In this document: piece after piece, positions 9,970 to 27,161 of the stretch
Layout: every line of letters starts with the position of its first letter
Position numbering within the stretch: position 1 is the first letter of the stretch
Assembly: GCF_000026545.1 (NCBI RefSeq)
Contig: NC_011601.1
Direction: 5' to 3' (one strand)
Origin: Escherichia coli O127:H6 str. E2348/69
GTDB taxonomy: Bacteria > Pseudomonadota > Gammaproteobacteria > Enterobacterales > Enterobacteriaceae
Length of the DNA: 64,000 nucleotides
Program-made: the position numbers and the translations under genes
Notes under the pieces: generated by a model
Told to the model about the DNA's origin: nothing
Databases searched by the model: none
The model's input: only the letters and a program-made list of their open reading frames with translations

Positions 9970-13336
<3,367 letters not shown>

Positions 13337-13402
13337 TCAGTAAAAGCGAATGGAGGGAGATTACACGAGATAAAGAACGCGAGCGACAGTAAATTAGGTG
13401 CG

Positions 13403-13490
13403 AAAAAAAACCTGCGCATCCGCGCAGGTTGGTGCAAGAGACAGGGTACGAAGAGCGTACCGAATAATCTCACCAATCAATACCTCTGGG
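13403..13490 (-). ncRNA. omrA: small regulatory RNA OmrA (88 nt)
   Basis: Minus-strand sequence begins CCCAGAGGUAUUGAUUGGUGAG and ends with a GC-rich hairpin plus U8 run; matches my memory of OmrA; located between aas and galR. Confidence 0.9.
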
Positions 13491-13605
13491 ATCTTGATTG
13501 TGGTCTGCACGACGACTCTTCGCCAGCGAGAAAACGCAAAGGAATGAAGGGAAATGCAACGAGGTGTGTAAATTGTCGGTTACTGTTACAGATTGATGAC
13601 CGGCA

Positions 13606-13687
13606 AAAAAAAACCTGCGCATCTGCGCAGGCTGGTGTAATTCATGTGCTCAACCCGAAGTTGACTTCACCTATCAATACCTCTGGG
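13606..13687 (-). ncRNA. omrB: small regulatory RNA OmrB (82 nt)
   Basis: Minus-strand sequence begins CCCAGAGGUAUUGAUAGGUGAAG and ends with hairpin plus U-run; shares 5' and 3' ends with OmrA, divergent centre. Confidence 0.9.
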
Positions 13688-13900
13688 ATCACCACTTTAG
13701 CAACCTGAAGCCAAACGCCACCAGCGGTCAATCGCAACAGCGTTTCGCAAAGTGTAACCAAAGGTTTGCAATCTCTTTTTTTGTCTTACTTATTTGCGTT
13801 TGGCTCACATTCCCACGATGAAAACATGTCACCCCTTGAACCAACGGGCGTTTTCCGTAACACTGAAAGAATGTAAGCGTTTACCCACTAAGGTATTTTC

Positions 13901-14932
13901 ATGGCGACCATAAAGGATGTAGCCCGACTGGCAGGCGTTTCAGTCGCCACCGTTTCCCGCGTCATTAATAATTCACCCAAAGCCAGCGAAGCTTCCCGGC
14001 TTGCTGTGCATAGTGCAATGGAGTCTCTTAGCTATCACCCGAACGCCAACGCCCGTGCGCTGGCGCAGCAGACCACTGAAACGATCGGTCTGGTCGTTGG
14101 TGATGTTTCCGATCCGTTTTTCGGTGCAATGGTGAAAGCGGTCGAACAGGTGGCTTATCACACTGGTAATTTTTTATTGATTGGCAACGGTTACCACAAC
14201 GAACAAAAAGAGCGTCAGGCCATTGAGCAACTGATCCGCCATCGCTGTGCTGCGCTGGTTGTCCATGCCAAAATGATCCCGGATGCCGATTTAGCCTCGT
14301 TAATGAAACAAATGCCCGGTATGGTGCTGATCAACCGTATCCTGCCTGGCTTTGAAAACCGTTGTATTGCTCTGGACGATCGTTACGGTGCCTGGCTGGC
14401 AACGCGTCATTTAATTCAGCAAGGTCATACCCGCATTGGTTATCTGTGCTCTAACCACTCTATTTCTGACGCCGAAGATCGTCTGCAAGGGTATTACGAT
14501 GCCCTTGCTGAAAGTGGTATTCCGGCCAATGACCGGCTGGTGACATTTGGCGAACCAGACGAAAGCGGCGGCGAACAGGCAATGACCGAGCTTTTGGGAC
14601 GAGGCAGAAATTTCACTGCGGTAGCCTGTTATAACGATTCAATGGCGGCGGGCGCGATGGGCGTGCTCAATGATAATGGTATTGATGTACCGGGTGAGAT
14701 TTCGTTAATTGGCTTTGATGATGTGCTGGTGTCACGCTATGTGCGTCCGCGCCTGACCACCGTGCGTTACCCAATCGTGACGATGGCGACGCAGGCTGCC
14801 GAACTGGCTTTGGCGCTGGCGGATAATCGCCCTCTCCCGGAAATCACTAATGTCTTTAGTCCGACGCTGGTACGTCGCCATTCAGTGTCAACTCCGTCGC
14901 TGGAGGCAAGTCATCATGCAACCAGCGACTAA
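13901..14932 (+). CDS. galR: galactose operon repressor, LacI family (343 aa)
   Basis: Track ORF 343 aa, N-terminal HTH MATIKDVARLAGVSVATVSRVIN. Confidence 0.95.
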   Translation: MATIKDVARLAGVSVATVSRVINNSPKASEASRLAVHSAMESLSYHPNANARALAQQTTETIGLVVGDVSDPFFGAMVKAVEQVAYHTGNFLLIGNGYHNEQKERQAIEQLIRHRCAALVVHAKMIPDADLASLMKQMPGMVLINRILPGFENRCIALDDRYGAWLATRHLIQQGHTRIGYLCSNHSISDAEDRLQGYYDALAESGIPANDRLVTFGEPDESGGEQAMTELLGRGRNFTAVACYNDSMAAGAMGVLNDNGIDVPGEISLIGFDDVLVSRYVRPRLTTVRYPIVTMATQAAELALALADNRPLPEITNVFSPTLVRRHSVSTPSLEASHHATSD

Positions 14933-19762: not shown

Positions 19763-19772
19763 GCCATGCGAC
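19763..19772. repeat. direct repeat GCCATGCGAC flanking IS copy 1 (second copy at 21323-21332)
   Basis: Identical 10-mer immediately outside both ends of the element; 9 or 10 bp may be true target-site duplication. Confidence 0.8.
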
Positions 19773-21322
19773 CTGTCTCTTGATCAGATCTCCTGATCAA
19801 GAGACTTCATCACCAGGTAACCCTCAACCATATCCTGAAGTCTGAACCAGCCATCCCACATGACTACCCAACCGGGGCGACCGGTGCGTTTGCTGTCATG
19901 CCATCGCCCCAGTTTCGCCAGTTTCAGACAGGCCCATTTCAGTGTCGGCATCTGTGACGGAAGCGGTTTTCCTTCCAGCTTAACCCACAGCAGTTTCCAC
20001 TCTGTCGGCGTCAGTATTTTCTCACAGCTGTCATTTTGTGTTTCTTCACTGATACCGCCCTGCCGCAGGCCCAGCACCCGCACCGCGATAAACGCCTTGA
20101 TAACCACCATGCGCTCGAGGTTATCCCGGGTCTGCATTCGCAGCGATTCCACACATGTACCACCACTTTTCCACGCCTTGTGGTATTCCTCTATCAGCCA
20201 GCGTCGCTCGTAATGGCTGACGATACGTCGCGCATCGGCGGCACTCGCCACTTTTTCTGACGTCAGCAGATGCCAGCAGGCGCCGTCCTCTGCCTGCTCC
20301 CGGCAACAGACATACGTGAGCGGGAGCGCCTGGCCGCTGTTGTCGGGATTTTTTATGCTGACTTCGCTGTAACTGATGAACATCCGGGCCTGGCGGGCTG
20401 CCCGCCCGCCTTTTTGCATCACATTCAGCGTGTGGCTTCCCGCGGTTGCCAGGACTTCCGGCAGTTCGAAGAGCTTGCCGGGTGCTTCTTCCAGCCGGCG
20501 ATTCTGTGCTGCACGCACCACGAAGCGCTGCCCGTGGCTGACTTTATAATGCAGGTAATGCCAGATATCCGCTTCCCGGTCACAGACAGTGATTACCCGT
20601 TTCTGTATCTCCCCCAGCCGTTCGGCCATGCGCTCCGAAGCCTGCTGCCAGCGGTAACTTTCTTTTTCTTCATAGGGACGTTCTTTTCGCTGGTGCTTAA
20701 CACCGTAGGTGTCCGTGGCACGACTCCAGCGCTGCTGTTCGATAAGACCGACTGGCAGGGCGCTGTCGGGGGCGTACATCAGGACAGAGTGAGCCAGCAG
20801 CCCGCGCGTCTTCGGGTTAGTGGTGGTATTCCCCAGGTCATCAGATGCCGTACTGTGACTGAAGTTAATGGTGGTGGTGTCTTCCAGCGCGAGGAGCAGC
20901 GGATGAGCCTCACATGCCCTTACAGTGGCGGTAAATCCGGCTTCGGCAATGGCTTGCGGGGACACAGACGGGTTACGTATCAGGCGGTACGCACCTTCAA
21001 CCTGAGCAGTGGACTGGGATGATTTCACAATAGAAAGACCTGCATGCTGAGCGAGAGAAGAGGCCAGTGACACAAGGCGTCGTGTACGACGCGGATCACC
21101 GAGACGGGCATGTCCAAACTGCTCGTTAGCCCATGAATAACAATCAGAAAGTACCATAACAGACCCGAAGAAAATGAAATATAAGAGAAGATCAACAGGT
21201 GAGGAAAAAGTTCAAAAAATCGCTGCCGGGGAGGAAGGAAACTACCGGATGGAAAGAGTCCCCCTAAAGCAGACTGACAGACATCACAAATCCCCGGGTG
21301 GGGATTTGTGTATAAGAGACAG
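19773..21322 (-). mobile_element. IS4-family, IS50-like insertion sequence, copy 1 (1550 bp)
   Basis: Termini CTGTCTCTTGATCAGATCT (left) and revcomp CTGTCTCTTATACACAAAT (right), matching IS50 inside and outside ends as I recall them; single 457-aa transposase ORF; flanking direct repeat; identical second copy at 43835-45384. Confidence 0.9.
19784..21157 (-). CDS. IS50-like (Tn5-type) DDE transposase (457 aa)
   Basis: Tn5 Tnp-like motifs LALEDTT, VCDREAD and YERRWLIEEYHKAWKSG (DDE triad and YREK signature); stop codon lies inside the left terminal repeat as in IS50. Confidence 0.9.
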   Translation of the reverse strand: MVLSDCYSWANEQFGHARLGDPRRTRRLVSLASSLAQHAGLSIVKSSQSTAQVEGAYRLIRNPSVSPQAIAEAGFTATVRACEAHPLLLALEDTTTINFSHSTASDDLGNTTTNPKTRGLLAHSVLMYAPDSALPVGLIEQQRWSRATDTYGVKHQRKERPYEEKESYRWQQASERMAERLGEIQKRVITVCDREADIWHYLHYKVSHGQRFVVRAAQNRRLEEAPGKLFELPEVLATAGSHTLNVMQKGGRAARQARMFISYSEVSIKNPDNSGQALPLTYVCCREQAEDGACWHLLTSEKVASAADARRIVSHYERRWLIEEYHKAWKSGGTCVESLRMQTRDNLERMVVIKAFIAVRVLGLRQGGISEETQNDSCEKILTPTEWKLLWVKLEGKPLPSQMPTLKWACLKLAKLGRWHDSKRTGRPGWVVMWDGWFRLQDMVEGYLVMKSLDQEI

Positions 21323-26253: not shown

Positions 26254-26327
26254 TGGAGCGGGCGAAGGGAATCGAACCCTCGTATAGAGCTTGGGAAGCT
26301 CTCGTTCTACCATTGAACTACGCCCGC
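26254..26327 (-). tRNA. glyU: tRNA-Gly (anticodon CCC)
   Basis: Minus-strand 74-nt sequence GCGGGCGTAGTTCAATGGTAGAACGAGAGCTTCCCAAGCTCTATACGAGGGTTCGATTCCCTTCGCCCGCTCCA with anticodon loop CUUCCCAAG and encoded CCA. Confidence 0.95.
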
Positions 26328-26405: not shown

Positions 26406-27161
26406 TCAGCATTTTGGCTTGCTGCCCTGAGGCGGCAAGTAACGTAGCGGATCAATTGCCGTTGCACGGTAACGAATCTGGAAATGCAGGCGAACAGATG
26501 CCGCATCAGTGCTCCCCATAGTGGCGATTTTTTGCCCAGCTTTCACGCTTTGCCCATTATTTACCAGCATCGTGTCATTATGAGCGTAAGCCGTAATGTA
26601 ATCTTCACTGTGTTTAATCATGATGAGATTACCGTAGCCACGCAGCTGGTTGCCCACATACACCACCTTTCCTGCACCCGCGGCGTAAATAGGTGTACCT
26701 CGTGGAGCTGAGATATCAATCCCTTTATTGCCGCCATCTGCTGTCGAATACGGCATGATAACTTTCCCTGTCGTTGGCCATAACCAACAACGTTGCCCTA
26801 CTGGCGGCCAGGAAGATTTCGGTACCGCTGATGACGGTGTAACCGATGCGGTTTTGGTCGTTGATTTGGCGGTTGATTTACGTGTACTACTGCTACTTTT
26901 CGCCCCACCCAGTTTTAGTTTCTGACCTACTTCAATGGTGTAAGGGGGGGAAATGCCGTTCAGTCGCGCCAGTTCTTTTACGCTGGTTCCCGTGGTGCGC
27001 GAAATACGATATAGCGTATCCCCCCGTTTCACGGTGTAAACGGAGCCGGAATACGTTCCTGTATCGGATGATTTGCTACCCGAACAGCCCGCCAAAAGCA
27101 GCCCAACCGATAACAACATCACGATACCCAGAGATTTTTTATTCAGGCGTCCCGCACTCAA
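26406..27161 (-). CDS. ygeR: LysM-domain, M23-peptidase-family lipoprotein (251 aa, TTG start)
   Basis: Track ORF 26406..27185 trimmed to the TTG that gives (M)SAGRLNKKSLGIVMLLSVGLLLAGCSG signal/lipobox; LysM motif YTVKRGDTLYRIS. Confidence 0.88.
   Translation of the reverse strand: MSAGRLNKKSLGIVMLLSVGLLLAGCSGSKSSDTGTYSGSVYTVKRGDTLYRISRTTGTSVKELARLNGISPPYTIEVGQKLKLGGAKSSSSTRKSTAKSTTKTASVTPSSAVPKSSWPPVGQRCWLWPTTGKVIMPYSTADGGNKGIDISAPRGTPIYAAGAGKVVYVGNQLRGYGNLIMIKHSEDYITAYAHNDTMLVNNGQSVKAGQKIATMGSTDAASVRLHFQIRYRATAIDPLRYLPPQGSKPKC

Follow-up and report, generated by a model that had tools for sequence, protein, structure and literature searches.

What do two short, similar stretches on the minus strand between aas and galR encode in Escherichia coli strain E2348/69? 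We examined this question in a 64-kb stretch of DNA from this strain, referred to here as the window. The interval is bounded on one side by an ORF of 719 amino acids with Acyltransferase and AMP-binding domains (11156..13315, minus strand), named aas in RefSeq, and on the other by a divergently oriented ORF of 343 amino acids belonging to the LacI family (13901..14932, plus strand), named galR. Both ORFs and their RefSeq names confirm the location given by a first-pass annotation made from the sequence alone, which had read the stretches as the sRNA genes omrA and omrB. We have hardly any doubt that the region consists of omrB and omrA, the tandem, independently transcribed paralogous sRNA genes of E. 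coli, and found no data contradicting this explanation. As the first-pass annotation rightly remarked, this is a recognition rather than a novelty: the pair is already known, and its intact presence in an EPEC strain is expected and constitutes no new biology.

A search of the complete window in Rfam 15, with the gathering thresholds as cut-off, yielded three matches, two to RF00079 (OmrA-B) and one to a tRNA. The downstream unit, omrA (13403..13490, minus strand, 88 nt), has its T-run 87 nt before aas and scored 96.6 bits (E 6.4e-18). The upstream unit, omrB (13606..13687, minus strand, 82 nt), has its 5' end 213 nt from galR and scored 86.1 bits (E 2.3e-15). Both matches are full-length, spanning model positions 1-87 with neither truncated, and their boundaries coincide exactly with the coordinates, lengths and strand that had been proposed. 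The first-pass annotation had suggested a covariance-model search as a check, and both units pass it at more than twice the gathering score of 40. The consensus architecture of the family, consisting of a free 5' end, a clamp stem, a central hairpin, a terminator and a U-tail, is present in both units, and we found no departure from RF00079 in either. The RF00079 alignment marks two pairs of OmrB as non-canonical (NC), one in the clamp stem and the other in the inner stem, which is usual for a B-type centre.

The two units resemble each other at their ends and differ in the middle. By pairwise alignment, 20 of the first 21 positions are equal, the exception being position 16 (T in omrA, A in omrB). 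The 15-mer CCCAGAGGTATTGAT, with which both units start, occurs exactly twice in the window, against a chance expectation of about 0.12 matches even with two mismatches permitted, and the conserved 5' end CCCAGAGGUAUUGAU.GGUG is found at the transcript start of both. According to duplex prediction, nt 1-21 form the target-pairing region, which reads CCCAGAGGUAUUGAUAGGUGA in OmrB (13667..13687, minus strand) and CCCAGAGGUAUUGAUUGGUGA in OmrA (13470..13490, minus strand). At the other end, the final stretch of 34 positions, which runs from UU.CACC to the end of the terminator, differs at only three sites. The middle parts fail to align: identity between the central segments, of 35 and 29 nt, is 49%, compared with 47 +/- 5% in shuffled controls, and 137 of 300 shuffles score as high. 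The near-identical 5' ends, the near-identical terminator hairpins with U-runs and the divergent centres noticed at first sight are thus all borne out by alignment.

A terminator scan detected a Rho-independent terminator in each unit. Both consist of a CCTGCGC....GCGCAGG hairpin of 9 bp, six of them G-C, which is followed by 8 T in omrA (13403..13430, minus strand) and by 9 T in omrB (13605..13633, minus strand); helix covariation, described below, supports both. Since the omrB T-run extends to 13605, the 3' end could reach this position, giving a transcript of 83 nt. In the minimum free energy (MFE) folds of both units, the 5' end is free, the GGUG/CACC clamp encloses a copy-specific central hairpin, and the terminator follows. 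The OmrA-specific hairpin, GGUACGCUCUUCGUACC (13445..13461, minus strand), is seen both by folding and by the terminator scan. We assigned the genes to the minus strand because the Rfam matches lie there, T-runs follow the hairpins there only, and -10 hexamers are found there at -12 to -7. Fold energy was rejected as a strand indicator, as the complements fold about as well (z of -4.6 and -2.9 for the plus-strand complements, -2.7 and -2.9 for the minus strand).

Comparison with the K-12 strain MG1655 settles the identity of the units. Over window positions 13350-13800, 451 aligned positions contain no substitution and one T insertion. The transcribed sequence of MG1655 omrA (b4444, formerly RygA/SraE; 88 nt) is identical to the downstream unit, and that of omrB (b4445, formerly RygB; 82 nt) to the upstream unit apart from the T-run, which at 13605 has 9 T in the window versus 8 T in MG1655. 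Owing to the extra T, OmrB of E2348/69 may be one U longer. Gene order (galR / omrB / omrA / aas) and strand agree between the two strains, and the promoters of both copies are identical up to about -113. The host is of course different, an EPEC strain instead of K-12, and we do not expect a functional difference between the OmrA/B of the two. The name OmrA/OmrB given at first reading is therefore right, the locus being that of MG1655 bar one T and both units belonging to RF00079. The accompanying remark that these are OmpR-regulated sRNAs is also in line with the literature with regard to lengths, layout, aas-galR location and OmpR control (PMC12692685; PMC5175337). A 701-bp stretch of the region was found in 5423 of 5426 complete E. 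coli genomes, with at least 99% identity in 5293 of those.

The curated MG1655 record carries ncRNA features for omrA and omrB at the corresponding positions between galR and aas, and is the only record examined that does so; none of the matches listed from complete E. coli genomes shows such a feature. The PGAP-made RefSeq records for E2348/69 and Nissle 1917 contain aas and galR only, as expected from the earlier statement that the two RNAs are not visible to ORF-based annotation. In the RefSeq record NZ_CP059840.2 of E2348/69, the omrA/omrB stretch (window 13403-13687) corresponds to the unannotated positions 967370-967654. At least in the PGAP records examined, the two genes thus appear to be absent from standard annotation.

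The locus also turned up on "plasmids", at two places in the E. coli genome search and in seven PLSDB records (NZ_OL790696.1, NZ_CP134663.1, NZ_CP141089.1, CP125156.1 and others), where the chromosomal aas-omrA-omrB-galR locus is filed as plasmid sequence. A plasmid-borne mobile copy was rejected as an explanation, because these records have sizes of 0.57-5.4 Mb and look like mislabelled chromosomes or chromosome fragments.

Other features of the window were recorded on the way. The third Rfam match is a tRNA-Gly with anticodon CCC (26254-26327, minus strand), the sole tRNA in the window; going by the Nissle annotation, yqeG lies about 320 nt before it, and actS follows closely. In K-12, we take the interval between yqeG and this tRNA to hold the remnant of the ETT2 island. 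Relative to Nissle 1917, the window contains two insertions of about 1.55 kb (19771-21322 and 43835-45384) that are 99.9% identical to each other. Both have Tn5-like inverted ends (CTGTCTCTTGATCAGATCT ... TGTGTATAAGAGACAG) and a target duplication of about 9 bp, and encode a 457-aa transposase with Tnp_DNA_bind, DDE_Tnp_1 and Dimer_Tnp_Tn5 domains, named IS4-like ISEc13 in RefSeq. One ISEc13 copy lies between araE and kduD, and there are about 30 copies in E2348/69. Among the records listed, a junction sequence with an ISEc13 insertion has a full-length match at 100% identity in NZ_CP059840.2 (E2348/69) alone, whereas two O127:H6 records cover 81% of it, likewise at 100% identity.

To follow the pair beyond E. 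coli, homologues were retrieved by an exact match of the 15-mer CCCAGAGGTATTGAT in one genome per species (298 Gb); most matches outside the Enterobacterales are chance occurrences and were ignored. This gave 27 further RF00079 units (66-97 bits) in 18 Enterobacterales loci, which were aligned together with the two window units to a set of 29. Across 26 distinct homologues, every cell of the terminator helix is paired (100%), compared with 18-53% in controls in which the partner was slid by one to three columns. Compensatory changes were seen at three of the eight pairs of the helix (G-C to A-U, U-A to C-G and C-G to U-A). The GGUG/CACC clamp is invariant in all 29 units and hence uninformative for covariation, and the first 15 nt are invariant among the fetched homologues by construction, being the key used for retrieval. 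The MFE folds leave nucleotides 1-6 unpaired in 25 of the 29 units, including both from the window. The central hairpin forms in every homologue while its sequence varies, and unit lengths range from 76 to 93 nt, with non-triplet indels in the central and spacer regions.

Where the fetched DNA extends far enough, synteny was assessed by tblastn with Aas and GalR of the window. Both neighbours are kept in Escherichia, Citrobacter, Enterobacter, Kosakonia, Pluralibacter, Shimwellia, Siccibacter, Serratia, Edwardsiella and Pantoea. In Serratia and Pantoea stewartii, the gaps span kilobases. In Enterobacter sp. BIGb0383 (locus L027), the sRNA and aas are about 2.8 kb apart.

Each of the two copies has its own signature, consisting of position 16, the base before CACC and the first loop base. 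These A- and B-specific states are constant across Escherichia, Citrobacter and Kosakonia, as well as in Enterobacter cloacae with the exception of the loop base, and such constancy across genera indicates purifying selection on each copy. This bears on the proposal that only one copy is functional in E2348/69 and the other is a decaying duplicate. OmrB is indeed variable and lost in some lineages (PMC12692685), and single-copy species exist. On the other hand, both copies and their promoters are, one T aside, identical to K-12 genes that are expressed and active, and both score far above the Rfam threshold. Together with the constancy of the copy-specific states, this leaves decay of one copy very improbable, and we regard omrA and omrB as two intact genes.

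Their promoters were compared by aligning the 110 nt upstream of each copy from 16 species. Read from the sequence, the -10 hexamer of omrB is TAAAGT (13694..13699, minus strand; -12 to -7 from 13687), with T at -12, and that of omrA is CACAAT (13497..13502, minus strand; -12 to -7 from 13490), with C at -12. A -10 element of the form TA..(G/C/T)T with T at -12 precedes the upstream copy in 14 of 16 species. Among the 14 downstream copies of the Enterobacteriaceae type, 11 have CACAAT, two GACAAT and one CAAAAT. In the literature, the C at -12 is described as the determinant of the sigma-S dependence of omrA, whereas omrB, with T at this position, is sigma-S independent (PMC12692685).

Further upstream, omrB is preceded by the blocks AACCTTTGGTTACACTTTGC (13766..13747) and CTGTTGCGATTG (13740..13729), which are conserved in 16 species and occupy the region of the OmpR and the proposed RstA site (13729..13766, minus strand). 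The omrA promoter (13523..13590, minus strand) has the blocks TGTAACAG (13590..13583), ACACACCTCGTTGCATTT (13569..13552) and TCATTCCTTTGCGTTTTC..GCTGG (13547..13523), conserved in 14 Enterobacteriaceae loci, with the consensus TGTAACAG, CACACCTnGTTGCAYTT and TCATTCCnTTGCGTTTTC..GCTGG across the aligned species. Thus, the conserved blocks are copy-specific, with one set for omrA and another for omrB. They match the boxes of Mathis de Fromont et al. 2026, who described four conserved boxes in PomrA and two in PomrB (PMC13425233). At positions -75 (13762) and -68 (13755), PomrB of the window has T and A, respectively; mutations there abolished activation by pRstAB and strongly reduced that by pOmpR (PMC13425233). 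Phosphorylated OmpR directly activates -114..+50 fragments of both promoters in vitro, and PomrA truncated to -60 is not activated by OmpR, the region upstream of -60 being required (PMC5175337). The promoter DNA of the window is identical to K-12 across these fragments.

A sigma-70 consensus scan of 13250-13950 found no promoter, so that the assignment of both promoters rests on conservation and the literature. The failure of the scan was rejected as evidence against transcription: the -10 hexamers match the consensus at 4 of 6 positions only, and OmpR-activated promoters lack a good -35 element. In E. coli 300709 (NZ_CP025903.1; locus L128, 2125-3634), an IS3-family element is inserted between omrB and omrA, with the break at about window 13553, corresponding to about -63 of omrA. 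The omrA promoter left in this strain is thus about the length of the PomrA-60 construct, and loss of OmpR control is predicted.

With regard to targets, we computed duplexes between nt 1-21 of the window RNAs and the start regions of K-12 ompT, cirA, ompR and csgD. The known sites of all four were recovered. For ompT, the optimum pairs nt 1-9 with +12..+20, the 9-bp interaction that has been proven by compensatory mutations (PMC2588501). The ompR site is predicted in the 5' UTR at about -38..-9, that of csgD at about -79..-59 (-25.9 kcal/mol for OmrA and -30.1 kcal/mol for OmrB), and that of cirA at about -39..-8, the published position being -35..-10 (PMC2588501). Among 500 shuffled seeds, the observed energy was reached by two for ompT, four for ompR, none for csgD and 140 for cirA. 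The cirA duplex (-13.6 kcal/mol) is no better than these shuffled seeds (140/500) or background translation-initiation regions from the window (29/47). Complementarity therefore supports the seed model for three of the four targets, and support for cirA is experimental only. Duplex energy was accordingly rejected as a target discriminator, since it singles out csgD, ompT and ompR but misses cirA. Among the background regions of the window, the best sites (e.g. those upstream of the ORFs at 47810 and 26406..27119) reach energies of the order of real targets, and no new targets are claimed here. In MG1655, the antisense RNA AsompR (b4842; locus L125, 939-1276) covers the ompR start and 5' UTR, including the predicted OmrA/B site.

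As both units lie on the aas strand and the omrA T-run ends 87 nt before the aas start codon, one could also read them as a cis-acting leader or attenuator of aas, in which tandem terminators govern read-through from upstream promoters. Such a leader is hard to reconcile with several features: both units carry a conserved -10 element and upstream boxes of their own as well as a strong terminator with 8-9 U, and the conserved 5' sequence is a trans-pairing seed complementary to unlinked mRNAs. In some species, e.g. Enterobacter sp. BIGb0383, kilobases separate the sRNA from aas. Moreover, discrete Hfq-bound trans-acting RNAs of 88 and 82 nt have been published with compensatory mutations (PMC2588501), and repression of targets by plasmid-borne, ectopic OmrA/B has already been published for K-12. 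We consider the leader model to be practically dismissed. The same holds for the idea that the conserved sequence encodes small proteins: minus-strand ORFs do exist (13394..13510, 38 aa, GTG start; 13470..13622, 50 aa, ATG; 13642..13761, 39 aa, TTG), but they cross terminator hairpins, T-runs and promoters, the homologues differ by non-triplet indels, and conservation peaks at paired and seed positions without a codon pattern, the helix covariation being RNA-like, which makes coding next to inconceivable.

For omrA and omrB as sRNA genes, a mechanism can be outlined, in which expression, control by OmpR, sigma-S and RstA, Hfq dependence and regulatory outcome are carried over from the K-12 literature and would presumably hold in E2348/69. 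Each gene would be transcribed from its own promoter with a weak -10 hexamer and conserved upstream boxes, with EnvZ-OmpR activating transcription as reported in the literature. The resulting transcripts of about 82-88 nt would each expose the shared 5' end as a single strand, followed by the clamped copy-specific central hairpin and the terminator. Judging from its layout, the terminator with the U-tail probably serves as the 3' module to which Hfq usually binds; for the identical K-12 RNAs, binding to Hfq and Hfq-dependent target repression have been shown (PMC2588501). Together with Hfq, the 5' end would pair imperfectly with translation-initiation or 5'-UTR regions of many mRNAs, the targets presumably including ompT, cirA, fecA, fepA, csgD, flhDC, dgcM, btuB and flgM. 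Pairing would block translation and often lead to RNase E-dependent decay. The targeting of ompR-envZ itself would close a negative feedback loop. A literature search for an OmrA/B interactome specific to EPEC yielded only a RIL-seq study in Klebsiella.

In its general design, the pair resembles RybB and other Hfq-dependent envelope sRNAs, which likewise combine a single-stranded 5' multi-target seed, a terminator/U-tail Hfq module and control by an envelope-stress regulator. They differ from OmrA/B in seed sequence and in regulator, the latter being sigma-E for RybB. What sets OmrA/B apart from RybB and other paralogous pairs is the tandem duplication with promoters that are wired differently. 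A resemblance between the interaction patterns of OmrA/B and RybB has also been pointed out (PMC2588501).

Mildly new material is limited to the evolution of the family in other species. The two copies of one genome tend to agree in their lineage-specific states, both at position 16 and in the terminator stem. In Serratia grimesii (locus L066, 10379-10746), the central regions of the two copies are 75% identical, a value reached by none of 300 shuffles, and in Edwardsiella ictaluri (L079, 3475-3753) they are 61% identical, which four of 300 shuffles reach. In each of these two species, both copies also have the A-U variant of a terminator pair in common. These sequence comparisons suggest independent duplication or gene conversion outside the Enterobacteriaceae. 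In Pantoea stewartii (L030, 2747 and 4789) and a Pantoea MAG (L059, 647 and 2680), about 2 kb rather than about 200 nt separate the units, implying that something has been inserted between them.

Single-copy loci are found in Lelliottia nimipressuralis (L037, 6815), Enterobacter sp. BIGb0383 (L027, 8853) and Superficieibacter electus (L028, 5418). All three combine an omrB-type promoter (GTTACACTTTGC, TGTTGCGAT and a TA..(G/C)T -10 element with T at -12) with a body of the omrA type, which contains the GGTACG..CGTAC central hairpin. Such a combination of promoter B and body A is the remnant expected from a deletion by recombination between the identical 5' ends, and it agrees with the chimeras of PMC13425233. 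That study states that it is always the omrB promoter that is retained. Siccibacter colletis (L080, 4030-4460) is an apparent exception: it has a single unit between aas and galR, whose promoter (TGTAACAG, CCACAAT) and body are, judged by their motifs, both of the omrA type, and neither an omrB body nor an omrB-type promoter motif was found in the 314 nt up to galR. Whether the tandem pair is a substrate of active recombination, as opposed to an ancient duplication that has stayed static, is a matter on which our judgement is evenly balanced.

For the window itself, the value of the result is mainly that of a check on the scan: a reader without tools located, with exact boundaries, two non-coding genes that the RefSeq annotation of the genome omits. 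OmrA and OmrB are an established hub, through which EnvZ-OmpR, sigma-S and possibly RstA act on the outer membrane, iron uptake, motility and curli/biofilm formation, with feedback on ompR. Active recombination of the pair, if true, would add nothing new on the window's own locus; for the family, it would mean that recurrent duplication, gene conversion and deletion shape its evolution.
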